UHGV virus genome: UHGV-1493261
Length of the DNA: 64,000 nucleotides
Source of the DNA: a virus
Direction: 5' to 3' (one strand)
Shown here: positions 23,032 through 55,301 of the stretch, one piece after another
Layout: the number at the start of each line of letters is the position of its first letter
Numbering within the stretch: the stretch's first letter is position 1
Made by a program: the position numbers and the translations under genes
The notes under the pieces: generated by a model
The model's database searches: none
What the model saw: the letters and a program-made list of their open reading frames with translations, nothing else
Told to the model about the DNA's origin: nothing

Positions 23032-24750
23032 GTGACAGCATTCAACCAATATACCAAGGCGCTTGACGGCGTCGGACCAGTCAGCATAGACCGCATCAAG
23101 TCTCTTGCCACTGAGTTCTTCCCGTATGACACCGCCAACCCCGGCCAGATGGAATGCATCGTTGAAGCCATTGATGCCCTTGTGAATAAGAAATTCAAAC
23201 ACGTGATCATCGAGGCTCCGACTGGTGTAGGTAAATCCCTCATCGGCACTACCATCCATAACGTGCTTCGCCATTTGGTTCTTGAGCACAACCCGTATGG
23301 TCAGTTCCGCACGTCTATCACGACGCCGACCAAAGGTTTACAGGATCAGTATGCAGCAGAGAAAGCCGTGGCGATAGACATCCTGAAGGGCAAGAAGAAC
23401 TACCGTTGCCACATCAGTCCCGACCTATACTACAACGCCATTCAGTGCCGTATGGCATGCCGTGATGGCCACTGTAGTAAGAATCGTTGCCCATATGTTC
23501 AGGCGCGTCGACAGTGGACCGACGTCTCCTCCTTGCGCTGCACCAACGCCGCCATGATGGTGGAGATGTGCACGACGATCTGTATGAAGCCGGAAAACCG
23601 CGCCGATATGCTGATCCTTGACGAGTGTCATAAGATGCCCTCTACGCTCCTAGAGCATACTATCATGGAATACAACACAAAGGCTGTGGAAGGGCTGCTT
23701 ACGATCCCCGAGGGAGTGCCTATCGTGGAGACCATCAAGGATATCATCATCCGCACAGAGAACTATGAATTGGGCAAGCTGTATTCCCTGTCTGGTGAGA
23801 TGCATGCGATATTTGATGAACTGCACGGCAAGGTTGAAGCCCTGTTGGAAACTCTTGAGGAACTGGTAGAGGACGAGCGCCTGACTGAAGCCCAGGTGAT
23901 GAAGCTGTCTGATATTATTGATACTCTTCACAACCTCAGCGACTACTGTGGTATCATGGGGCAGACCAACGCCAGCACTTTCATCGTACAGGAGAAGGAC
24001 AAGGGTATGATTCAGTTCAAGCCTGTCATCGCCTCTGATGTATCCCAGTTCGGTCTGTTCCGCAAGGGTGACTACCACGTCCACATGTCGGCGACCATTT
24101 GTGGGATTGACTCGTACGCCCGGTCACTGGGTATCCGTGAGGGTGAGTACCACAAGATACAGATCGGCAACCCTATCCCGATTGAGAACCGGAAAGTCAA
24201 CTACATGCCCATCATGAAGATGACGGCGAACATGGGTGACTACGAGATGAAGAAGCTGGCTGAATACGTGGATGAGATTATCGCGTTCCACCCTGGACAG
24301 TCTGGCATCATTCACACAGTCAGTTATGACCGCGCCCTGGCTCTACAGAAGTTCAGTAAGTACCGGAATATGATTCACGTTCCTCGTACTCGTAAGGCTC
24401 TGATGGACATCATGGAACACGCGTTCAGGACGAAGACGCCTTGTGTCATCGCCAGTCCGGCCATGGAAGAGGGGTATGACTTCAAAGGCGATTATAGTCG
24501 ATTTCAGATCTTGATCAAGGTGCCATACGATTACCTTGGTGATCCTCTGGTGGCCCACGTCAACAGTGTGGACCCATCGGCGTACTTCAGGATGGCGGTA
24601 CTGCGTATCGTTCAGATGTGTGGGCGTTCTGTCAGGGGCGTGAATGACTGGGCTGCGACATACATCCTTGATTCTTCTTTTGAATCACTGATGATGCGCA
24701 ACCCAGAGTTCTTCCCCGCTTGGTTCACTGATGCCGTGTTTGAGGTTTAG
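23032..24750 (+). CDS. DinG/XPD-like Fe-S helicase
   Basis: GTG start after AGGAGGAA. Walker A EAPTGVGKS, DECH box (LILDECH), four-Cys cluster (C...C...C...C) between motifs. Confidence 0.7.
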   Translation: MTAFNQYTKALDGVGPVSIDRIKSLATEFFPYDTANPGQMECIVEAIDALVNKKFKHVIIEAPTGVGKSLIGTTIHNVLRHLVLEHNPYGQFRTSITTPTKGLQDQYAAEKAVAIDILKGKKNYRCHISPDLYYNAIQCRMACRDGHCSKNRCPYVQARRQWTDVSSLRCTNAAMMVEMCTTICMKPENRADMLILDECHKMPSTLLEHTIMEYNTKAVEGLLTIPEGVPIVETIKDIIIRTENYELGKLYSLSGEMHAIFDELHGKVEALLETLEELVEDERLTEAQVMKLSDIIDTLHNLSDYCGIMGQTNASTFIVQEKDKGMIQFKPVIASDVSQFGLFRKGDYHVHMSATICGIDSYARSLGIREGEYHKIQIGNPIPIENRKVNYMPIMKMTANMGDYEMKKLAEYVDEIIAFHPGQSGIIHTVSYDRALALQKFSKYRNMIHVPRTRKALMDIMEHAFRTKTPCVIASPAMEEGYDFKGDYSRFQILIKVPYDYLGDPLVAHVNSVDPSAYFRMAVLRIVQMCGRSVRGVNDWAATYILDSSFESLMMRNPEFFPAWFTDAVFEV

Positions 24751-25514
24751 TAACCCGCAACGAAGGACAGATGGCACTTGACATTCGGTTCCAACGACGT
24801 CACAGAAACCGTCATATTGTCCGTATCTTGGCTGAAGTCAATGGTGGCGAGAGGTTTGGTCTGAATATGGTTATAGACACTGTAGATCAGATCCTCGCCA
24901 CGATACCCTACCTTCCCATCGGTGTCTTGCCAATGACCCAGTGTCTCATCGTAGACATGCACTCTGAACTCGATCATATGGAAGAGTGCCTTGGGGATGT
25001 CCTTGAGTACGCTGGTGCCAACCACGGGAATCTCTATACTGGAATCATTGGAGTTCCCTTCATAGACCGAAGCCCATGCAAAGGTAGGATCACCCCCAGC
25101 AACAGGGGTTCGCTTCCAGTATTGGAATTCTGGGTTGCCCGAAGCGTTCTTCTGAAGTAGAATGACCTCACCACCTTTGAAGTTCGAGGTATCGATGTCG
25201 CCTCGCTGAAGTTCATCTGCTGGAGATCCAATAAATTTCCAACCTTCGCGATCCAGTAAAGACTTATAATAGTCGGTGAACACGTTGCTGTCTTCTGCAT
25301 CGTTGATGGCATCTTTGAGACCTTGGCCTGTCACCATCTCGTTGAGCTTCAACCACATGTTCTTGACAGCAGACGCTGCTGCGACTTGTCCAGCAGTCCC
25401 ACCTGCAGCATAATCATAGATGATATCTTCTGACTTGATAGCATCATAGATAGAGAGGAGCAATTGCTCAATCTGCGGGGCGGTGAGACTGAAACGATAT
25501 GCGCGGGGTGCCAT
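24747..25514 (-). CDS. late-expressed virion structural protein (unassigned)
   Basis: Start at minus ATG 25514 (AGAGGA RBS) inside track ORF ending 25673. Exact TATAAATA late promoter 35 nt upstream on the - strand. 256 aa, Gly/Ser/Thr-rich. Confidence 0.55.
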   Translation of the reverse strand: MAPRAYRFSLTAPQIEQLLLSIYDAIKSEDIIYDYAAGGTAGQVAAASAVKNMWLKLNEMVTGQGLKDAINDAEDSNVFTDYYKSLLDREGWKFIGSPADELQRGDIDTSNFKGGEVILLQKNASGNPEFQYWKRTPVAGGDPTFAWASVYEGNSNDSSIEIPVVGTSVLKDIPKALFHMIEFRVHVYDETLGHWQDTDGKVGYRGEDLIYSVYNHIQTKPLATIDFSQDTDNMTVSVTSLEPNVKCHLSFVAGY

Positions 25515-25549: not shown

Positions 25550-25557
25550 TATTTATA
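25550..25557 (-). promoter_or_regulatory. T4-type late promoter TATAAATA
   Basis: Exact TATAAATA on the - strand, 35 nt upstream of the ATG at 25514. Confidence 0.6.
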
Positions 25558-31094: not shown

Positions 31095-31129
31095 AGGGCA
31101 CTAAATATCACGTGCCCTTTATCTTTTAA
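31095..31129 (+). terminator. rho-independent terminator
   Basis: AGGGCAC / 10-nt loop / GTGCCCT then TTATCTTTT. Confidence 0.55.
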
Positions 31130-31184: not shown

Positions 31185-31799
31185 ATGACGATGACAACGT
31201 TGAAGGCCATGGCCTTGTCCGTGACCTTTACCATTGCCAGCGGGAATGTGCACGCTTCCCAAAATACAAGTCAATGTGGTTATAATTTCTCCGAGCAACA
31301 ACTTAATACGATGGCAACCGCCTATCACGTAGGCAAGACACAAGATCTTGGCTACACTCTGGCCGCCATATCTTGGCGAGAGAGCCGCGCTGGTGAAGAT
31401 GTAGTGTCAATGCGATACGGCCTCAAGGCGGCCAACATGGGAGCCTTTCAGAACAAGGTGAAGACAGTTGGTGATCGCGAAGGTTGTAAGAATCGCAAGT
31501 GCTATGCCAATGTCGCCATAAAGTTGCTGACCGACCAAGAATATGCCGCGCAAGCCGCCCTCGATGAGATGCAGTTCTGGCTGACCTATCACAATCAGAA
31601 TATCCGCAAATCCCTCTCCTCTTACAATGCTGGCTTCGCCCGTAATCCTGCATCGAACGCTTATGCTGCCGACGTCGTGAAGAAAGCTAAATATCTTCAG
31701 AAATGTGTGTCTTTCGAAGGCCGGACCATCTCCGAGGTAGATCCTCAGGTGATCGCCATGAACAAGCACACAATAGAGAAACTGAAGAGGACAAGATAA
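31185..31799 (+). CDS. exported protein, possible lytic transglycosylase-like
   Basis: Signal peptide MTMTTLKAMALSVTFTIASGNVHA. ISWRESRAG ... GAFQ ... SYNAG loosely resemble SLT motifs (ES...GA.GLMQ, AYNAG). AAGGAA RBS. Confidence 0.45.
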   Translation: MTMTTLKAMALSVTFTIASGNVHASQNTSQCGYNFSEQQLNTMATAYHVGKTQDLGYTLAAISWRESRAGEDVVSMRYGLKAANMGAFQNKVKTVGDREGCKNRKCYANVAIKLLTDQEYAAQAALDEMQFWLTYHNQNIRKSLSSYNAGFARNPASNAYAADVVKKAKYLQKCVSFEGRTISEVDPQVIAMNKHTIEKLKRTR

Positions 31800-32437
31800 T
31801 GAACATCACTCCATCTCAGGCCGGATATGAACATATCTTGGTCTTCATTGCTCTACAGGGTGCGAAGGAAGGCATCATCGTATCCGAGTACTCAGGCACG
31901 GTTCGCCTTGCTGATTATGTCGCACCGGAGGCATTTATCAAGAAGTGTATTGACGCATGGTGCCTCTATGCCCTCAGCACATACCCTGCTCCTCCTGATG
32001 GCGAGCTGTTGTTTACTGTACCGACTCCAGCTGCTGGCGATACGGACGCGATCTTTGCCGATATGCTGGCCAAGGGGTATCTGGTGTATGACCTCACCCA
32101 CGATGTCTACTCCTTTACTTCGCTGAACACCGTGTTTGGATTCACCATCACATCTGAAGCCAACATCCCTGACTGGGGTATCTTGGCATGGGGTGTTGAC
32201 GGCCTGGGTGCAACCTACGCATCTTCTGACGTCGGTGCAGTTCTGATTGATGAGGGTGTCACCATGGAGCAGTACCTTGCCCAGTTCCCTCAGCACAATA
32301 TCACAGGCAGCGACATCATTTTGGTCCAGCCTGGCGCTATCGCTCTCCCCCGTTTGGTGGGTGGATGGAATCCTCGGCTGAAGGACATCATCGCAGGTAT
32401 TCGATCCCACATTCCGGTTGTGAATCCGACGCCGTAA
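31799..32437 (+). CDS. hypothetical protein
   Basis: Start at ATG 31799 (GAGGA RBS, TAATG overlap) inside track ORF 31703. 212 aa. Confidence 0.5.
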   Translation: MNITPSQAGYEHILVFIALQGAKEGIIVSEYSGTVRLADYVAPEAFIKKCIDAWCLYALSTYPAPPDGELLFTVPTPAAGDTDAIFADMLAKGYLVYDLTHDVYSFTSLNTVFGFTITSEANIPDWGILAWGVDGLGATYASSDVGAVLIDEGVTMEQYLAQFPQHNITGSDIILVQPGAIALPRLVGGWNPRLKDIIAGIRSHIPVVNPTP

Positions 32438-32862: not shown

Positions 32863-32954
32863 CCCAAGTTCAAAAATAAGATAAGGGGGCTGACGCTCCC
32901 TTTTGGTTTCGCTAATTAGAAGAAACCGCCGTTAATTCAGTCAGGAGATATAAA

Positions 32955-35669
32955 ATGTCAAAGCTAAGTTTCCTCCAGTTCATGCAGGAAAGAGATCAGT
33001 TGGACGAAGCGTTCAACTCCGCTCCGTATGAGCTGACTATGGGTAAGAAGAACGCAGGCGATGTGTTCTTCACCTTCGTCGACGAAGATGAAAAGGAATA
33101 CCGTATTCAGTTCTATACCCCTCAGGGGCTGGGCAAGAGCGTTCGTCAGGTTTTCATCGGTCAGAAGCGCGGCTCCGTCTATCCTGACGCCATCGCTCGC
33201 TTCAAGAACCCAATGCGCGTTATCGCTTCCATGATCGAAGCGACCAAACAATTCATGGCGACTCCTCTGGGCAAGACCATCGATGGCTTTGCTGTCAACT
33301 TCTCGAAGAAAGCGCTGGATCGCGGTATGACCCTAATTCCTAAGATCATCCGCCAGTCCGGCCTGAAACAAAAACTGAATGTCATGGACCTGACCTACGC
33401 GCCTGTCCCTGACCGTGGTTATGTGTGGCTGGTCCGCAAGGGTAAAGATCCGGCTCAGGTATTCGACGGTCCGAAGATGCAGGGTATCACCTGGGATGAT
33501 CCAGACAAGGTCGGCGACGTTCCGGTTCAGAATAATACTTCGGATGTGGGAGTTGGGGCTGGTTCTTCTGAAATCGAAGTCAACCGCGAGTGGTACAACA
33601 GCTCGGACACTGGTCTGGAGTTGAAGAGCGGGCGAGACCCGATTCGTGGAAACTACGTCCGCCTGATAAGCGGTTCGAAAGAAGTAGCCGCATTCTATGG
33701 TTATGATTTTGACAAATATCCAGACGGGACTGAGGTATCTTGGAATATGAAGCGCGGCTTCACCAACCAAGACTTGGTCGGTGCGTCCATGACCAAACAG
33801 AAGAAAGGCATGTACGATCAGTACACTTTCAAGAAAGGTGCTCAGATAATTCTGGTGGTGGACGTTGACACCAGCAATGACACCAGCAATGACACCAGCA
33901 ATGACAACGGTTGGAAACTCACAAAAGCCGATGCCACTCAACCAATGTTAGTATGGGCGGGGAAAGAAAAAGGTCGCTTAGTCACGGCAAATATCGCTCC
34001 CCACTACAATGAGCCGGGCGTGTATGTTGGCGCATACATGAATGAGAAACCTGTGCGTGGGCAAAGTGCTGATTTCATTGCTCGTCAGTTGAAATTACCA
34101 CAAGTCCCTATCAGTATCCTGAATGATTTCACCACGGCGTCCACAAAATTTTGGAAAGGTTCTCAGCAGAAGTCCGCGCCAGCTGACTCTAACACCACAA
34201 TCGGGGCAACCAGTATCGATCAATTGCGTGACAGCGGTTTCATCGCTCGTGTTCTGGGTATCATTGATGCCAACATTGACCAGAAAGCAAGCCATCTCCC
34301 AGGGGAAAGCATTAAGAAGATCGGACAGGCACGTTATCAAACTAAAGGTGGTCTGGTGATCATCGTCAGCTTCGATTCAGTCGATGGCAAGAATCTGACC
34401 TACAACGTGTTCTCTGAAATCGAAACTCAGCCTGGTGTCATCTCTGGCGATGCTCGTCTGGTGGCAAACAAAATCATGGAAACGATCACACACGTGGCCA
34501 AACATCAGTACACTGGCAAATGGGAAATTAGCGCAGTGCCAACAAGCGCTCCATACCCTATCAAAGCCATTCGCCGTTCTCGGGGCTGGGGTTATGTGGA
34601 AACCGCAAACTGGACTCTGAAAGTGTCCGACGCTGTCCTGAATCGTGTGAAGCCAGGGAACACTGCTCTGCTGGAACTCATCAAAGAACCTCCTCGTGGC
34701 AAGCACCTGCTGGTAATCATCCCAGAGAAGGGCGACAAGACCCTGATGCTGAAAGATCGTATTAGCGGGGCCATCTATGGTTCTATCGACCTGAATGCCC
34801 AGGGTGCTGATATGGTCAACTCTGGAACCCTGAAGATGCCACGCAACGCCATGGTGTTTGGCGAGACTGTCAACGGTATGTCTATCACTTGGTCTGGAAT
34901 CAATTTCCCGAAAACTGGGAAGTATGATGGTGCTGTATTGACCACGAATGTGACCTATTACTACGACAAAGGAAAAGTCGCGTTCACACCGATGATCTCC
35001 CAGAAAGGGCGGCTGCTGAACAATCCGAAGACATATGAACTTCCTTTGAATAAAGACATTGTTCAGGCATTGATCGATGAAATTTCTTCTAAAATGGAAA
35101 TGATATCTCGGAATATGCAAACTCTGAAAAGCACGTCGCATAATCCGAAACAAGTATTTTTGGACGACATTTCTGTTGACAACAACGGTTCAGTCCTTTG
35201 GCGCGGGTACGACATGGCGGATCGCCGCACTAATGATTTTATGTTGGGTATCCTGTCCAAAGAAACCGAGAGACTGGAGAAAGAGTCGAGTACTGCGAAG
35301 AAGACTGGTGCCGACCTTGCGGCATACGCCGACTCCATCCGCGACAACGCACCAAAAGGTCGCGACCTGGATTGGCAGATCTATGCAAGCCGTGATGGTC
35401 AGACTCTGAACGTGGACTGGGATATCACCTTCCGCCGCAACACAACTGAAGGGGCATATCGCGAGTTCAAAGCTCAGATTGACCGCGCCAACCAGTACCT
35501 GCAGACTCTGTACCGGGATGCGAAGTCCAAGGGTTACAACCCGACTGAACCAAACCTGATGACTCTGGCTAGCGCCCAGCAGTCTGACCAGTGGTCACAA
35601 GACAACGGGGAAAGCGCATACAGCGAGTACGAGCAGTCCCTGGGTGGAAACATGCAGATCAAGATCTGA
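32955..35669 (+). CDS. large hypothetical protein (904 aa) with internal DTSN tandem repeat
   Basis: AGGAGA RBS. No recognised catalytic motif. Perfect 12-nt x3 DNA repeat at 33867-33902 encoding (DTSN)3. Confidence 0.7.
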   Translation: MSKLSFLQFMQERDQLDEAFNSAPYELTMGKKNAGDVFFTFVDEDEKEYRIQFYTPQGLGKSVRQVFIGQKRGSVYPDAIARFKNPMRVIASMIEATKQFMATPLGKTIDGFAVNFSKKALDRGMTLIPKIIRQSGLKQKLNVMDLTYAPVPDRGYVWLVRKGKDPAQVFDGPKMQGITWDDPDKVGDVPVQNNTSDVGVGAGSSEIEVNREWYNSSDTGLELKSGRDPIRGNYVRLISGSKEVAAFYGYDFDKYPDGTEVSWNMKRGFTNQDLVGASMTKQKKGMYDQYTFKKGAQIILVVDVDTSNDTSNDTSNDNGWKLTKADATQPMLVWAGKEKGRLVTANIAPHYNEPGVYVGAYMNEKPVRGQSADFIARQLKLPQVPISILNDFTTASTKFWKGSQQKSAPADSNTTIGATSIDQLRDSGFIARVLGIIDANIDQKASHLPGESIKKIGQARYQTKGGLVIIVSFDSVDGKNLTYNVFSEIETQPGVISGDARLVANKIMETITHVAKHQYTGKWEISAVPTSAPYPIKAIRRSRGWGYVETANWTLKVSDAVLNRVKPGNTALLELIKEPPRGKHLLVIIPEKGDKTLMLKDRISGAIYGSIDLNAQGADMVNSGTLKMPRNAMVFGETVNGMSITWSGINFPKTGKYDGAVLTTNVTYYYDKGKVAFTPMISQKGRLLNNPKTYELPLNKDIVQALIDEISSKMEMISRNMQTLKSTSHNPKQVFLDDISVDNNGSVLWRGYDMADRRTNDFMLGILSKETERLEKESSTAKKTGADLAAYADSIRDNAPKGRDLDWQIYASRDGQTLNVDWDITFRRNTTEGAYREFKAQIDRANQYLQTLYRDAKSKGYNPTEPNLMTLASAQQSDQWSQDNGESAYSEYEQSLGGNMQIKI
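33867..33902 (+). repeat. perfect 12-nt x3 in-frame tandem repeat (GACACCAGCAAT)
   Basis: Encodes DTSN-DTSN-DTSN inside the 904-aa ORF. Confidence 0.8.
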
Positions 35670-35676
35670 TCATCGA

Positions 35677-35694
35677 AAGCCCCTTCGGGGGCTT
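35677..35694 (+). terminator. terminator-like hairpin abutting late promoter
   Basis: AAGCCCC / TTCG / GGGGCTT directly followed by ATAAATAA (TATAAATA at 35694-35701). Confidence 0.45.
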
Positions 35695-35701
35695 ATAAAT
35701 A
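35694..35701 (+). promoter_or_regulatory. T4-type late promoter TATAAATA
   Basis: Exact TATAAATA on the + strand, 25 nt upstream of ATG 35726, abutting the terminator hairpin of the 904-aa gene. Confidence 0.5.
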
Positions 35702-35725
35702 ACTGAAATCCCCGAGGAGATTAAG

Positions 35726-36031
35726 ATGAAACCGTTTATCGAATATTTTAAAGAACAAGCCGCTAAACCTCAGACCCATGCTGGTGTCCAGGGTAAGACC
35801 GTATCCATCACCAAGCAAGCTGACGGCACCCAGTGGTGTTCCGGCGCTACCGTGACCCAGATCACTCCTGACAATCAGGCGGATGTCTACAACCTGGAGT
35901 TAACCAACGGCAACACCATCAAGGTGAAGCTGACCCCAGACCAGACTCACGGTATCTCCCAAGGTCAGGAAGTCGTTGCTGTCCATGACGGTTTCGAATT
36001 CTTCTTTGGCAAGCCTGCCGACAAAGACTAA
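35726..36031 (+). CDS. hypothetical protein, probably late-expressed
   Basis: 101 aa, GAGGAG RBS. Exact TATAAATA on the + strand 25 nt upstream. Confidence 0.5.
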   Translation: MKPFIEYFKEQAAKPQTHAGVQGKTVSITKQADGTQWCSGATVTQITPDNQADVYNLELTNGNTIKVKLTPDQTHGISQGQEVVAVHDGFEFFFGKPADKD

Positions 36032-36061
36032 GTGAAACCATCAAGATGACTCTTGATCATA

Positions 36062-36093
36062 ATCCCCCTAAATACAGGGGGATTTCTTTTTCT
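36062..36093 (+). terminator. rho-independent terminator
   Basis: ATCCCCC / loop / GGGGGAT then TTCTTTTTCTG, between stop 36031 and ATG 36106. Confidence 0.6.
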
Positions 36094-36105
36094 GAGGACA
36101 ACATC

Positions 36106-36459
36106 ATGGTCAATGCGAGTATTTTCATCAACCGTGGACTGCTTGCTATAGCCCACTCTCATGCCTTGCACTTCGTTACAACGTCCTATGCCAAGCACAA
36201 GGCACTCGGGGAGTTCTACGGGGATCTAGAGGACTTGCTGGACACGTTTACCGAAGCATACATCGGTGCAGGTGGTCAGTATGTTCCATCATTCGAGAAT
36301 ATCAAATTGTACAACCCAGACCCTATCTCCTATATTAACAGTGTGGTGATAGACGTCGATGGCATCTACAAGCAGTGTGACTCCCACCTTCAGAGCACTC
36401 TTGACGATATCAAGACACTGTGCTATCAGACGATCTACAAACTGAAGCAGCTGTCGTAA
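36106..36459 (+). CDS. hypothetical protein, possible ferritin/Dps-like helical fold
   Basis: Start at ATG 36106 (GAGGACAACATCATG) downstream of the terminator at 36062-36093. HSHALHFVTTSYAKHKALGEFYGDLEDLLDTFTEAYIGAGG loosely resembles Dps helix A/B. Confidence 0.45.
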   Translation: MVNASIFINRGLLAIAHSHALHFVTTSYAKHKALGEFYGDLEDLLDTFTEAYIGAGGQYVPSFENIKLYNPDPISYINSVVIDVDGIYKQCDSHLQSTLDDIKTLCYQTIYKLKQLS

Positions 36460-36516
36460 GTCAATACGAAATAAAGGCATATAATTTTGCTCATTATTCA
36501 CCAAAAGGAAAGGACA

Positions 36517-37128
36517 ATGAGCAAAATCTTTATCCCGTCACACCGCGAAGGATGTGAAATCGCGGCCAACTACCTGCGCGGTCGCATGAACTGCGGCGCT
36601 GTCTTCATCGAGCCAAATTCGTTTGACAACAAAGAATCACCTGATGCCATCGGGTTCCGTTCCGGCGGTTGCTCTATCCTGATGGAAGTGAAGGTGTCTC
36701 GCTCTGATTTCCTTACCGACAAGAAGAAGCCTCATCGCATGGATCCGACGACGGGCATGGGCGCATACCGCTTTTATGTCTGCCCTCAGGACGTGATCAG
36801 GGTTGAAGACCTACCACCGAAGTGGGGGCTGTTCTACTTCACACCCCGCAAGTCCCTGATGCCAGTTCATGTGCCAGACATGCGGTACTCTTTATTGTCA
36901 TCACCAGATCATTATCAGAAGTACCTTGATGAACAGATCAAGAGAGGAAGAACCGTTACTCGGCATATGCGCAGCTACATGGAACTCCTCGAAGGCTTCG
37001 CCCACTTTGAGCGCAACACTGCCGGGGAGCAGAATATCCTGTATGGGGCTTGGCGCCAACTGTGTATAGCTCAAAGTCGTGGTGTAGACTATACTGTGAC
37101 CGAAGTGTTCCAGAGGCCGAAGATCTAA
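36517..37128 (+). CDS. hypothetical protein, possible PD-(D/E)xK nuclease
   Basis: Start at ATG 36517 (AAGGAAAGGA RBS). PDAIGFRSGGCSILMEVKVS gives a D...E.K arrangement. Stop overlaps the HNH gene start (TAATG). Confidence 0.45.
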   Translation: MSKIFIPSHREGCEIAANYLRGRMNCGAVFIEPNSFDNKESPDAIGFRSGGCSILMEVKVSRSDFLTDKKKPHRMDPTTGMGAYRFYVCPQDVIRVEDLPPKWGLFYFTPRKSLMPVHVPDMRYSLLSSPDHYQKYLDEQIKRGRTVTRHMRSYMELLEGFAHFERNTAGEQNILYGAWRQLCIAQSRGVDYTVTEVFQRPKI

Positions 37129-37784
37129 TGAACTATCAAAAAATTCATGACGCTATAATAACCAGAGCCAGGGATAGAATTTTAACTGGTTACAAGGAAA
37201 AACACCACGTCATCCCTCTATCTCTTGGTGGTGAAGACAGGAACTACAATAAAGTTTCTCTCACAGCATCTGAACATTATATTATTCATCTTCTGTTGGC
37301 AAAAATTCACGGCGGGGTAATGGTCAGCGCATTTAAAAAGATGCGCCACTTGACCTCTAATCCTCCAAACAATAAAGAATTTGCCGCCAGGAGGGAATTG
37401 TTGTGTACGACAGCCGGAGAGAAAGCGAAAGATCCACAAAAACGGAAAAATCATTCTCTGAAAATGAAGGGTAGAAACCATACAGAATCTACCAAATTGT
37501 CAATATCTAATTCCATGACTGGGGAGAATAACCCAATGAAGGGGATACCTGCATGGAGGAATCCGACCAACATCAGCCGAGGAACCCATAAAAATTGGTT
37601 GGCGGCTGGAGAAATTTATGACTTGTACATCACAGGGAAATTTTTAAGAGTTATCGACCTCTTCAATGCTTGCAAATTGCCGACATCATACGGAACGGTT
37701 TCCACCATAAAAACAAAATTGGAATTGGGTTGGAAACCAAGGAAAGACGCGGATTGGTTGCAATTCTATGAGGAACACAAATGA
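37128..37784 (+). CDS. HNH homing endonuclease
   Basis: Start at ATG 37128 inside track ORF 37050. HHVIPLSLGG...N...SEHYIIHLL (HNH); GENNPMKG NUMOD-like. AT-rich codons. Inserted immediately upstream of the primase gene. Confidence 0.75.
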   Translation: MNYQKIHDAIITRARDRILTGYKEKHHVIPLSLGGEDRNYNKVSLTASEHYIIHLLLAKIHGGVMVSAFKKMRHLTSNPPNNKEFAARRELLCTTAGEKAKDPQKRKNHSLKMKGRNHTESTKLSISNSMTGENNPMKGIPAWRNPTNISRGTHKNWLAAGEIYDLYITGKFLRVIDLFNACKLPTSYGTVSTIKTKLELGWKPRKDADWLQFYEEHK

Positions 37785-54293: not shown

Positions 54294-54320
54294 AAGCCAT
54301 CTTCGGATGGCTTTTTATTT
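54294..54320. terminator. bidirectional rho-independent terminator
   Basis: AAGCCATC / TTCG / GATGGCTT then TTTATTTT, between the convergent gp32 (+) and late gene (-). Confidence 0.65.
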
Positions 54321-55259
54321 TCCCATCACGTCTTTCAATATCCCCAACAGGCTTGTCTTCTCCGTCGCCGTCAGGTTATCGTTGCCCATGATGTCGCGAG
54401 AGATACCCACCGAGATGCGCTCGAAGTCCTGTATACTGATCCCAGCCAGGTTGTTTACAAGTTTGTCAAGCTGTTTGTAAGCCAGGAGAGCCTCTCCTGT
54501 GAAGTTCCCTTCTTTCACCTTGCGATAAAGCTGTCCAGCTTTTGAGGCCGCAGTTTCCCAGTCACCACTGGTAAGAGCGTCAGCAATGCCGAGAGGAAGA
54601 AAATCGCTGGAAAGGCTGCGTGTTTCATATTCTGTCTCCGAAAGCACTTTGTTGTAAGAGAAAGAAATGTTGTACTGGTTGAACTGGTCTGTGGCGCCTT
54701 TATCCAGCTCAATAGAACTGAAATTTATTGGGTGAGCCTCGACGATGTAGACGCGGTGGACCACTTGATCTTCGGTGTCAAGCTGTTCAATGCATATGTC
54801 AGTCACGAAGTCTTCGTAATATCCCATTTTGGTGGTGTGTGGATCAAAGATCAGACTCTTCCACTTGTCCATCACAGACTTCTCATAATAGTCATTGGCT
54901 AATAAGAATGACAAGTCGAGGTCGACGTTGGACTTGTTGTTCGGCATCTTGATGTGATTACCGTTGTTTGTCATTGGAGTGGTGTCGATACCAACCCCTG
55001 GCAATGAGGCAACCATACACATCATCTGAAGGGAACGGGACGTCTGGTTTGTCCCTCCAAAGAAAGCGTTTACAATACGGGCTGACTGCTTAAACAAGTC
55101 ACCAAAAGATGAATTGGTTCTGTACGCCTTTCCGTCATTAGCCAGAGTGGCATTGGAGTCAAAGATCCCTGGTGGTAGAGGGATGGTCACTCTGAAGCGG
55201 TTCTTGCGCGACAAGCCCCGCTGTAATATCTGTGTGATAAAATTGCGATAGTCTTCCAC
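54315..55259 (-). CDS. late structural protein, tail-tube/baseplate-tube-like (gp19/gp48/gp54 family), tentative
   Basis: GTG start 55259 after GGAG. Exact TATAAATA 35 nt upstream on the - strand. N-terminal RKNRFRVTIPLPPGI resembles the tube-protein N-terminus (RPNLFQVEI...ALPAGI in T4 gp19). Confidence 0.5.
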   Translation of the reverse strand: MEDYRNFITQILQRGLSRKNRFRVTIPLPPGIFDSNATLANDGKAYRTNSSFGDLFKQSARIVNAFFGGTNQTSRSLQMMCMVASLPGVGIDTTPMTNNGNHIKMPNNKSNVDLDLSFLLANDYYEKSVMDKWKSLIFDPHTTKMGYYEDFVTDICIEQLDTEDQVVHRVYIVEAHPINFSSIELDKGATDQFNQYNISFSYNKVLSETEYETRSLSSDFLPLGIADALTSGDWETAASKAGQLYRKVKEGNFTGEALLAYKQLDKLVNNLAGISIQDFERISVGISRDIMGNDNLTATEKTSLLGILKDVMGK

Positions 55260-55293: not shown

Positions 55294-55301
55294 TATTTAT
55301 A
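55294..55301 (-). promoter_or_regulatory. T4-type late promoter TATAAATA
   Basis: Exact TATAAATA on the - strand, 35 nt upstream of the GTG start at 55259. Confidence 0.6.

Follow-up and report, generated by a model that had tools for sequence, protein, structure and literature searches.

[quoted passage not shown] To our knowledge, no role has been defined in T4 for its N-terminal region. [quoted passage not shown] MuF and polyvalent head-packaged effectors, including P1 DdrB, likewise combine an N-terminal head-association module with interchangeable C-terminal modules (Iyer et al. 2017; 2022), and both Alt and DdrB are head-internal proteins (PMC9026906; PMC9024508; PMC5512222). In T4 Hoc and other Ig-like capsid decoration proteins, an anchor domain is joined to a string of ~100-aa modules of variable number.

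Phages of the Ackermannviridae are in wide use for biocontrol and therapy. The 64,000-nt stretch of DNA analysed here, which we call the window, is an Agtrevirus-like Ackermannviridae genome, and it encodes a 904-aa protein whose orthologues are among the most abundant particle proteins of this family, yet are annotated as 'hypothetical' or, without visible basis, as 'tail completion protein'. Our analysis points, with a probability of roughly 55%, to an abundant particle component built on the plan of Alt without its ART domain, which would be packaged in the capsid and probably ejected. This link to Alt-type packaging architecture gives a concrete idea of the place of the protein and of its route there.

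Modular architecture and the DTSN repeat

The gene is divided into a leader, an N domain, two cassettes separated by the repeat-containing linker, a core and a C-terminal domain:

32955..35669, + strand: coding sequence of the 904-aa protein (phrog_3867), ATG start, module order N-A-B-K1-K2-Z
32955..33008, + strand: leader MSKLSFLQFMQERDQLDE, aa 1–18, predicted helix ending L16-D17-E18/A19
33009..33533, + strand: N domain, aa 19–193, alpha/beta fold of GNAT-like type, remotely homologous to the N-terminal domain of T4 Alt by profile comparison
33534..33866, + strand: optional cassette A, aa 194–304, mostly beta
33867..33908, + strand: A-B linker with (DTSN)3, aa 305–318, predicted disordered
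33909..34184, + strand: optional cassette B, aa 319–410
34185..35294, + strand: core K1-K2, aa 411–780, several small alpha/beta sandwich domains
35295..35666, + strand: C-terminal Z domain, aa 781–904 (WDITFRRNT...AYSEYEQSLGG), no Pfam match

The reading frame is the longest in the window (the runners-up have 781, 779 and 760 aa), and sequence searches with the whole protein returned only a sub-threshold T4SS-DNA_transf match in Pfam, no match among PDB sequences and, in PHROGs, only a family of unknown function. An earlier note on this DNA had described it as the largest frame without a recognizable motif, which is correct for its size and for Pfam, PDB sequence and PHROG function but not for profile and fold comparisons, which place the N-terminal domain as described below.

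The same note had pointed to a perfect 36-nt tandem repeat in this gene, and here direct reading and Tandem Repeats Finder agree, the latter reporting an array at 33866–33906 with a period of 12, 3.4 copies, 100% matches and no indels. Within this array, three copies of GACACCAGCAAT at 33867–33902 encode DTSNDTSNDTSN (aa 305–316), that is, (DTSN)3, and a perfect 41-nt periodic match in 64 kb cannot be chance. Relatives carry 1, 2 or 3 DTSN units, with DTSSN variants also present, so the copy number does vary among them, with an in-frame effect only: because the 12-nt unit is a multiple of three, slippage alters the length of the linker while the frame is kept, and no on/off switching results. 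We considered whether the repeat could nevertheless be a contingency locus at which slippage switches or tunes the function of the protein, a reading that the perfect 12-nt × 3.4 array and the variation in unit number and sequence among relatives would favour. Contingency loci, however, have a unit that is not divisible by three or lie in a promoter, whereas this short array of three copies is in frame and inside a linker predicted to be disordered (pLDDT <50 at residues 304–317 of the predicted structure). Its position also coincides exactly with a cassette junction, and the linkers that relatives have there are similar in composition but unrelated. We regard a contingency function as highly improbable.

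Beyond the N domain, the family consists of strings of optional cassettes of ~75–115 aa with low-complexity linkers between the parts, and we observed 28 architectures among 121 homologues, in agreement with the diversity and fast change of T-even internal proteins (PMC3012670). The K1-K2 core is kept in most enterobacterial Ackermannviridae, the LIMEstone1 version being largely missing or diverged, and the Z domain recurs elsewhere, both as a small protein by itself and combined into other architectures.

Relationship of the leader and N domain to T4 Alt

The first ~190 aa show hardly any variation across the Ackermannviridae and are confidently predicted to form a GNAT-like alpha/beta fold (pLDDT 88). 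When a profile of 50 N-domain sequences was compared by hhalign with an alignment of the T4 Alt N-terminus, the two matched over 158 columns with Prob 92.1% and E 6e-7 (Prob 93.8% and E 2e-7 with a trimmed alignment), compared with 0.1–0.2% for reversed controls. This alignment, which pairs residues 14–177 of the 904-aa protein with Alt 2–178, establishes remote homology between the two N-terminal domains at the level of profiles. L16-D17-E18 falls on I4-T5-E6 of Alt, and ITE-6 is an experimentally known gp21 cleavage site (PMC5694885). In Pfam, the entry PF26846 is listed on Alt N-terminal fragments, T4 Alt itself being unmatched by PF26846 in the scan used.

The leader has a pLDDT of ~63, versus >90 for the domain right after it, and its sequence makes it a candidate capsid-targeting propeptide with a prohead-protease site. 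Across 50 homologues the leaders range from 6 to 45 aa, and the junction has L or I at P3 in 44/49, E at P1 in 49/49 and A or S at P1' in 47/49. The L-x-E-A-F motif also begins the conserved fold, so structural reasons could account for its conservation. Depletion of [LI]xE sites elsewhere in the 904-aa protein, looked for as a mark of protease-exposed cargo, was not seen (6 observed vs 5.0 expected).

The 904-aa protein and Alt thus have in common a homologous ~170-aa N-terminal domain preceded by a short leader ending in [LI]-x-E, and both occur in the virions of phages whose heads assemble in the T4 manner. They differ in that the leader has 18 aa in the 904-aa protein vs 6 in Alt, that the 904-aa protein is modular and unrelated to Alt beyond the N domain, and that the Alt C-terminal LTE-619 site has no counterpart near its C-terminus. 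T4 Alt matches the ADP-ribosyltransferase domain PF03496 (R-S-E type) in the Pfam scan, whereas the 904-aa protein does not. The estimated abundance of the 904-aa protein is apparently above the ~40 copies of T4 Alt, which counts against the Alt-like reading.

When 1.84 billion proteins were searched with a profile, the N domain was found N-terminally in ~75 otherwise unrelated ones, three of which carry PF03496 / phrog_802 Alt-like ART domains and six a phrog_2299 domain with homology to the C-terminal metallopeptidase of P1 DdrB; a word-indexed search returned only 7 proteins for the N-domain profile and only 10 for the Alt N-terminus. Both ART and DdrB-type zincin domains are hubs of polyvalent proteins, and among N-domain proteins they occur in distant homologues only. 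The 904-aa protein itself contains neither, nor a MuF, portal or other recognized polyvalent-protein domain, and its cassettes have no assigned activity; polyvalent proteins are defined by at least two effector domains, and Pfam recognized none in it. The link to Alt further suggests that the N-terminal region of Alt is portable, a module that different types of cargo have in common. If this is true, foreign proteins could be packaged into such phages with the leader and N domain as a handle, and the cassette region would be a place to seek new host-takeover or anti-defence activities.

Orthologues in virions of related phages

According to published proteomes, purified particles of Vi01, LIMEstone1 and Sajous1 contain orthologues of the 904-aa protein and of three neighbours. 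In CsCl-purified Sajous1 virions, gp214, gp215, gp216 and gp217 gave 196, 32, 20 and 10 spectra, respectively, gp214 ranking third behind the capsid protein and VriC (PMC10892097). Comparison with gp214 confirmed the orthology, at 86% over the N domain and 46% over the remainder. LIMEstone1 ORF81/82, 80, 78 and 85 are annotated as 'confirmed structural protein', and of these the orthologue ORF81 was covered to 55% by 23 peptides, with ORF82 detected too. In Vi01, the orthologue 094c as well as 093c and 096c are annotated as 'phage associated protein'. Three independent virion proteomes therefore support the earlier suggestion that the 904-aa protein is virion-associated, and the three observations named in advance as speaking against it (an invariant repeat, absence from virions and no fold-level match) were each the opposite of what we found. 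Relatives also possess a T4-type prohead protease and scaffold (PMC10892097, Table 6).

A 'Ferrojan horse' tail-entry operon has been proposed for gp214–217 (PMC10892097), which we did not adopt, its basis being low-coverage Phyre matches; moreover, its authors found the single host that they tested to show no dependence on that iron-uptake pathway.

Packaging model and alternatives

We propose a family plan in which a short leader ending in L-x-E/A is followed by the conserved ~170-aa N domain and then by variable 'cargo'. The leader and N domain would direct the protein to the scaffolding core inside a T4-type prohead, a gp21-like prohead protease would cut off the leader after Glu18, and the mature protein would remain in the filled head until its ejection, together with the DNA, into the cell. 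Ejection is known for Alt, and we infer it for the 904-aa protein. In place of the ART domain, the cargo here comprises combinatorial cassettes (A and B), the small alpha/beta core and the conserved C-terminal domain, and might contribute to host takeover or anti-defence; (DTSN)3 is the A-B linker, its length drifting by replication slippage. The small gene downstream would supply another particle protein from its own late promoter. If the leader is removed at Glu18, the semi-tryptic peptide AFNSAPYELTMGK should appear as the N-terminus, whereas the uncut form would give the intact tryptic peptide QLDEAFNSAPYELTMGK. The plan resembles that of the T-even internal proteins in attaching diverse, rapidly replaced cargo to a common N-terminal signal cut after Glu. 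Unlike the internal proteins, however, which are small (8–20 kDa) and basic and have a CTS of 10 aa but lack a conserved domain, the 904-aa protein has a mass of 100 kDa and a folded 170-aa domain after the leader.

It is also conceivable, though we think it distinctly less likely, that the protein sits on the outside of the particle, with the N domain as its anchor on the neck, the tail or the surface of the capsid and the cassettes facing the environment, where they would diversify to serve adhesion or immune evasion. Exchangeable cassettes of ~100 aa joined by flexible linkers are likewise a typical trait of decoration proteins displayed on the surface, and the virion protein T4 Hoc offers a parallel in its anchor domain and variable number of modules; an external location would suit a Hoc-like decoration or fibre and would cover the label 'tail completion protein' that some records and one paper give to orthologues. 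However, the fold matches to tail terminators are accompanied by generic alpha/beta sandwiches in the hundreds whose Z is equal or higher, the gp15- and gp3-type completion genes are separate (Sajous1 gp146, LIMEstone1 ORF127), and LIMEstone1 has its own Hoc, ORF6. Neither an Ig-like fold nor any other adhesion domain was found in Pfam and fold comparisons, the modules instead looking alpha/beta, and an external protein would leave the Alt homology of the N domain and the ART and DdrB-type fusions unexplained. Identity with the T4 tail completion/terminator proteins gp15 or gp3, which would call for homology to either of them in the sole such gene of the genome, was considered in its own right and rejected.

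The GNAT-like fold would also suit an active GNAT-type acyltransferase, that is, a packaged enzyme acylating a target from host or phage, either once injected or while the particle is being assembled. GNAT Pfam models gave zero matches at E ≤ 1 against 50 family members, and a by-eye reading of the N domain revealed no evident CoA pyrophosphate-binding motif A (Q/R-x-x-G-x-G/A); we judge an active enzyme to be improbable. Even further from our expectation is a non-structural replication/repair accessory that co-purifies with particles. Its gene would then be at home between the gp46/47 nuclease and gp61 primase genes, where it lacks a late promoter of its own, and LIMEstone1 virions do contain traces of ligase, PhoH and gp44. 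But these contaminants are represented by one peptide each at <5% coverage, far below the figures for ORF81, the rank of gp214 in CsCl-purified Sajous1 is out of keeping with a contaminant, and the Alt-type N-terminus would be left without a reason.

Extending the Alt-like packaged protein to a general scheme, we tentatively speculate that the domain common to the 904-aa protein and T4 Alt is a previously undescribed head-delivery module of T4-like and Ackermannviridae phages, MuF-like in function, with a GNAT-like fold, a cleavable leader and interchangeable cargo (ART, DdrB-type peptidase or cassettes). The 904-aa protein could then be among the most abundant ejected Ackermannviridae proteins, and cassette shuffling the record of an arms race with host defences.

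Flanking genes and the predicted downstream late promoter

The following elements flank the 904-aa gene:

31799..32437, + strand: DUF7270 gene, 212 aa, orthologues virion-associated (LIMEstone1 ORF85, Vi01_096c)
32883..32902, + strand: terminator-like hairpin with T-rich tail, 3' of the upstream 112-aa gene
35677–35694, + strand: GC-rich hairpin AAGCCCC-TTCG-GGGGCTT just 3' of the 904-aa stop codon, −13.1 kcal/mol, z = −3.3, conserved in relatives
35694..35701, + strand: exact copy of the T4-type late-promoter motif TATAAATA, 25 nt upstream of the small-gene start codon
35726..36031, + strand: small gene, 101 aa (phrog_4048), matching the first 100 aa of a 189-aa orthologue that is a virion protein in relatives
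36061..36084, + strand: intrinsic terminator with CTAAATAC in the loop, 3' of the small gene
36106..36459, + strand: DUF5856 / Dps-ferritin-like gene, 117 aa from the ATG at 36106, orthologue virion-associated

The 904-aa gene lies within a replication/repair block, and no late-promoter motif was found between the hairpin at 32883..32902 and its start. From 30,300 to the start of the gene, a search for TATAAATA, exact or with one mismatch, found only the one-mismatch TAAAAATA at 32435, which overlaps the DUF7270 stop codon ~520 nt upstream of the 904-aa gene. The missing nearby late promoter and the replication/repair neighbourhood were both counted against a packaged protein.

Downstream of the gene, the hairpin at 35677–35694 shares one base with TATAAATA, as expected from the earlier description of a terminator fused to a late promoter. 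The hairpin is followed by AUAAAUAACUG, however, and since it has no U-tract and is not listed by the terminator scan, the name 'terminator' fits only by half. TATAAATA at 35694 fits a T4-type late promoter of the small gene, with GAGGAG at 35714–35719 ahead of the ATG. Hairpin and motif are identical in Agtrevirus and Limestonevirus relatives (Aglimvirinae), and the LIMEstone1 record has a late promoter annotated at the corresponding spot. This conservation upholds the assignment of the predicted promoter to 35726..36031 and, together with the presence of the neighbours' orthologues in virions, the view that the block is late or structural. The window contains three exact copies of TATAAATA, each ahead of a virion-protein gene.

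A virion-associated protein family beside replication genes

The largest ORF of the window, 32955..35669 (+), encodes a 904-aa protein of phrog_3867 (function unknown) and is flanked by gp46/47 nuclease genes and the gp61 primase gene, in a genome that over 22 kb is ~96–97% identical to Agtrevirus-like Ackermannviridae such as YX22, RPN242, A221 and CECAV_050. The family is already known as an 'unknown structural protein' of ViI-like phages, and the suggestion in the earlier note that the protein is virion-associated is supported by orthologues in three published particle proteomes, those of Sajous1, LIMEstone1 and Vi01. For the CsCl-purified Kuttervirus Sajous1, the authors list gp214, with 196 spectra, as one of the five best-represented proteins; by the Table 6 counts it ranks third, behind the capsid protein (924) and VriC (311) (PMC10892097). 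The Sajous1 protein gp214 is the orthologue of the 904-aa protein (86% identity in the N-terminal N domain, aa 19–193, and 46% in the remainder), and the GenBank record places gp214–217 at the syntenic position; gp215, gp216 and gp217 gave 32, 20 and 10 spectra (PMC10892097), gp215 being the orthologue of the small gene downstream. In LIMEstone1, ORF81, ORF82, ORF80, ORF78 and ORF85 are 'confirmed structural', ORF81 with 23 unique peptides and 55% coverage (PMC3296691); a frameshift in the record divides the orthologue of the 904-aa protein into two halves, ORF82 and ORF81. For Vi01, 41 particle proteins were reported (PMC3184105), and 'phage associated protein' is the product name that its GenBank record gives to 094c, 093c and 096c.

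Nothing evident justifies calling gp214 a 'tail completion protein'; in Sajous1, the protein that truly resembles gp15 is gp146. In older GenBank records, the orthologue appears as 2–3 ORFs in AG3 (FJ373894; locus stretch L003, 4001–6380) and LIMEstone1 (HE600015; locus stretch L006, 7416–9012), with frameshifts at ~aa 157 and ~aa 104, respectively. It is intact in the AG3-like phage Gloob (809 aa), and in LIMEstone1 MS found the products of both halves; sequencing errors probably account for the splits. The DUF5856 Dps/ferritin-like (36106..36459 (+)) and DUF7270 (31799..32437 (+)) proteins are virion-associated in relatives too, so that the 'replication' block hides a cluster of particle proteins, four to five in number and none with an assigned role.

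Modular architecture of the family

Residues 1–193 are nearly invariant across homologues, and length ranges from 563 to 1208 aa among the 120 listed of 276 word-indexed homologues. Mapping defined segments on 121 sequences gave 28 architectures of the form N-[C][A][B][D]-K1-K2-[E]-[Z], where K1-K2 is the core, Z the C-terminal domain and A to E optional cassettes, from N-K1-K2-Z (~700 aa) to N-C-A-B-D-K1-K2-E-Z (1208 aa). The 904-aa protein is N-A-B-K1-K2-Z, its nearest genomic relatives are N-B-D-K1-K2-Z, and the LIMEstone1 orthologue clearly retains N and Z only. This combinatorial turnover resembles that of the T-even internal proteins.

The (DTSN)3 repeat noted earlier, encoded by GACACCAGCAAT x3 (residues 305–316), was recovered by Tandem Repeats Finder as the sole tandem array of the region (33866–33906, period 12, 3.4 copies, 100% identity). 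It forms the linker following cassette A and is predicted by AlphaFold to be disordered. Its copy number does vary among relatives, which carry DTSN x1, x2 or x3, DTSN-DTSSN-DTSSN, DTSN-DTGN-DTSD and others; length thus differs among lineages, but every variant keeps the reading frame and sits where two domains meet.

Relation of the N domain to T4 Alt

When 1.84 billion representative proteins were searched by profile, 140 matches emerged, in two independent sets: ~75 proteins of 300–1390 aa that share the N domain alone, always N-terminal, and ~70 mostly small proteins that share the Z domain alone (FRRNT...YSEYEQSLGG). Outside the core family, 59 N-domain proteins include three with a T4 Alt-type ADP-ribosyltransferase (ART) domain (PF03496, 1e-18; phrog_802, 1.8e-36, profile positions 361–641) and six with a phrog_2299 domain, a homologue of the C-terminal metallopeptidase region of P1 DdrB; in P0154, the one representative inspected, the phrog_2299 domain has an HExxH motif. 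Vibrio Ackermannviridae (VP-1, MH363700; locus stretch L007, 6989–12680) have a tandem pair of N-domain paralogues at the syntenic position; a DdrB-like HExxH metallopeptidase domain forms the C-terminal end of the second, which is 1207 aa long. T4 Alt is packaged in the head and then ejected (PMC9026906), and DdrB is a P1 head protein (PMC9024508; PMC5512222).

Because of the ART fusions, we compared the N-domain profile (50 sequences, mean identity 31%) with T4 Alt N-termini. Using hhalign, residues 14–177 matched Alt 2–178 (probability 92.1%, E 6e-7, 158 columns; 93.8% with a trimmed alignment), and reversed-sequence controls scored 0.1–0.2%. The absence of any recognisable motif claimed earlier holds for Pfam and PDB sequence searches, which found no domain and no relative, but profile comparison does place the N domain. 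The alignment superposes L16-D17-E18|A19 on Alt I4-T5-E6|L7, the ITE-6 site at which gp21 cleavage removes six residues from Alt (PMC5694885). Across the family this junction has L/I at P3 in 44/49, E at P1 in 49/49 and A/S at P1' in 47/49, after leaders of 6–45 aa. With the same 50 sequences, AlphaFold predicts a leader helix at lower confidence (residues 6–19) and a well-defined alpha/beta domain (residues 21–185; pLDDT 87.7, pTM 0.80 overall).

In T4, diverse proteins enter the prohead core by means of short N-terminal propeptides, which the protease afterwards cuts off (PMC3012670; PMC9026906). By analogy, we infer that the leader and N domain would bring the 904-aa protein into the prohead, that the leader would be cut at E18, and that a mature protein of ~98.5 kDa (100.7 kDa less a 2.2-kDa leader) would be retained in the head and leave it together with the DNA. 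The main rival, an externally exposed decoration or tail-associated protein, would fit the modular design too; it leaves the homology to the Alt N-terminal domain and the ART and DdrB-type fusions unexplained. The internal [LI]xE sites of the protein are not depleted, its cargo cassettes have no assignable activity, and no late promoter of its own was found upstream. Taken together, the Alt relation, cleavage-type junction, ART/DdrB-type fusions and cassette combinatorics, for which a literature search found no description, make the family a variant of the Alt/internal-protein kind. The earlier observation is confirmed and its interpretation supported.

A probable late promoter for the small gene

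Features of the hairpin region and exact TATAAATA copies
35677–35694 (+): GC hairpin directly 3' of the 904-aa stop codon (-13.1 kcal/mol, z = -3.3)
35694–35701 (+): exact TATAAATA before the small gene; its first base is the hairpin's last
35726..36031 (+): small gene, 101 aa, with GAGGAG, then ATG, downstream of TATAAATA
36061–36084 (+): canonical terminator (terminator scan), 3' end of the small gene
25550–25557 (-): TATAAATA before the 255-aa ORF 24747..25514(-)
55294–55301 (-): TATAAATA before the 314-aa gp54-like tail tube/baseplate ORF 54315..55259(-)

The proposed fusion of a terminator to a late promoter stands in that the hairpin overlaps the exact TATAAATA, but the hairpin lacks a U-tract and is not among the terminator scan's predictions, so the word 'terminator' is justified only in part. 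The hairpin and TATAAATA are identical in CECAV_050, RPN242, AG3 and LIMEstone1, whose authors annotated a late promoter at the same spot; Kuttervirus has GGGGCTAAATAC at the TATAAATA position. The window holds three exact copies (0.67 expected), all 25–43 nt upstream of particle-protein gene starts; the 255-aa ORF shares 83% identity with Sajous1 gp203, which gave 39 spectra and is labelled a 'putative structural protein' (PMC10892097). This conservation, annotation and placement support the late-promoter reading for the small gene.

Three GC-rich hairpins contain or abut a TAAATA core (31097–31118, GGGCAC-TAAATATCAC-GTGCCC; 35677–35701; 36061–36084, CCCCC-TAAATA-CAGGGGG), recalling the ViI-like motif CTAAATAcCcc; it seems that terminator hairpins are systematically paired with late-promoter-like cores. 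The small gene product has 101 aa in the window and RPN242 versus 189–190 aa in AG3, CECAV_050, Vi01 and Sajous1, and hence its C-terminal half is missing in the window; its N-terminus, MKPFIEYFKE, is in the style of a T4 capsid-targeting sequence, and it has a weak TOBE-domain match (E 0.004).

Other genes nearby

The 244-aa ORF 37050..37784 (+), which lies between the gene at 36487..37128 and that for the primase, looks from its NUMOD3 motif (Pfam E 1.5e-6) and HHVIP...N stretch like a free-standing homing endonuclease; RPN242 has no counterpart at that site, and LIMEstone1 has F-LimV there. The 204-aa protein of 31185..31799 (+) begins with a stretch resembling a signal peptide and weakly matches SLT transglycosylase (E 4e-4), and its relatives carry conflicting annotations as RegB, RNA endonuclease or Vs.1.
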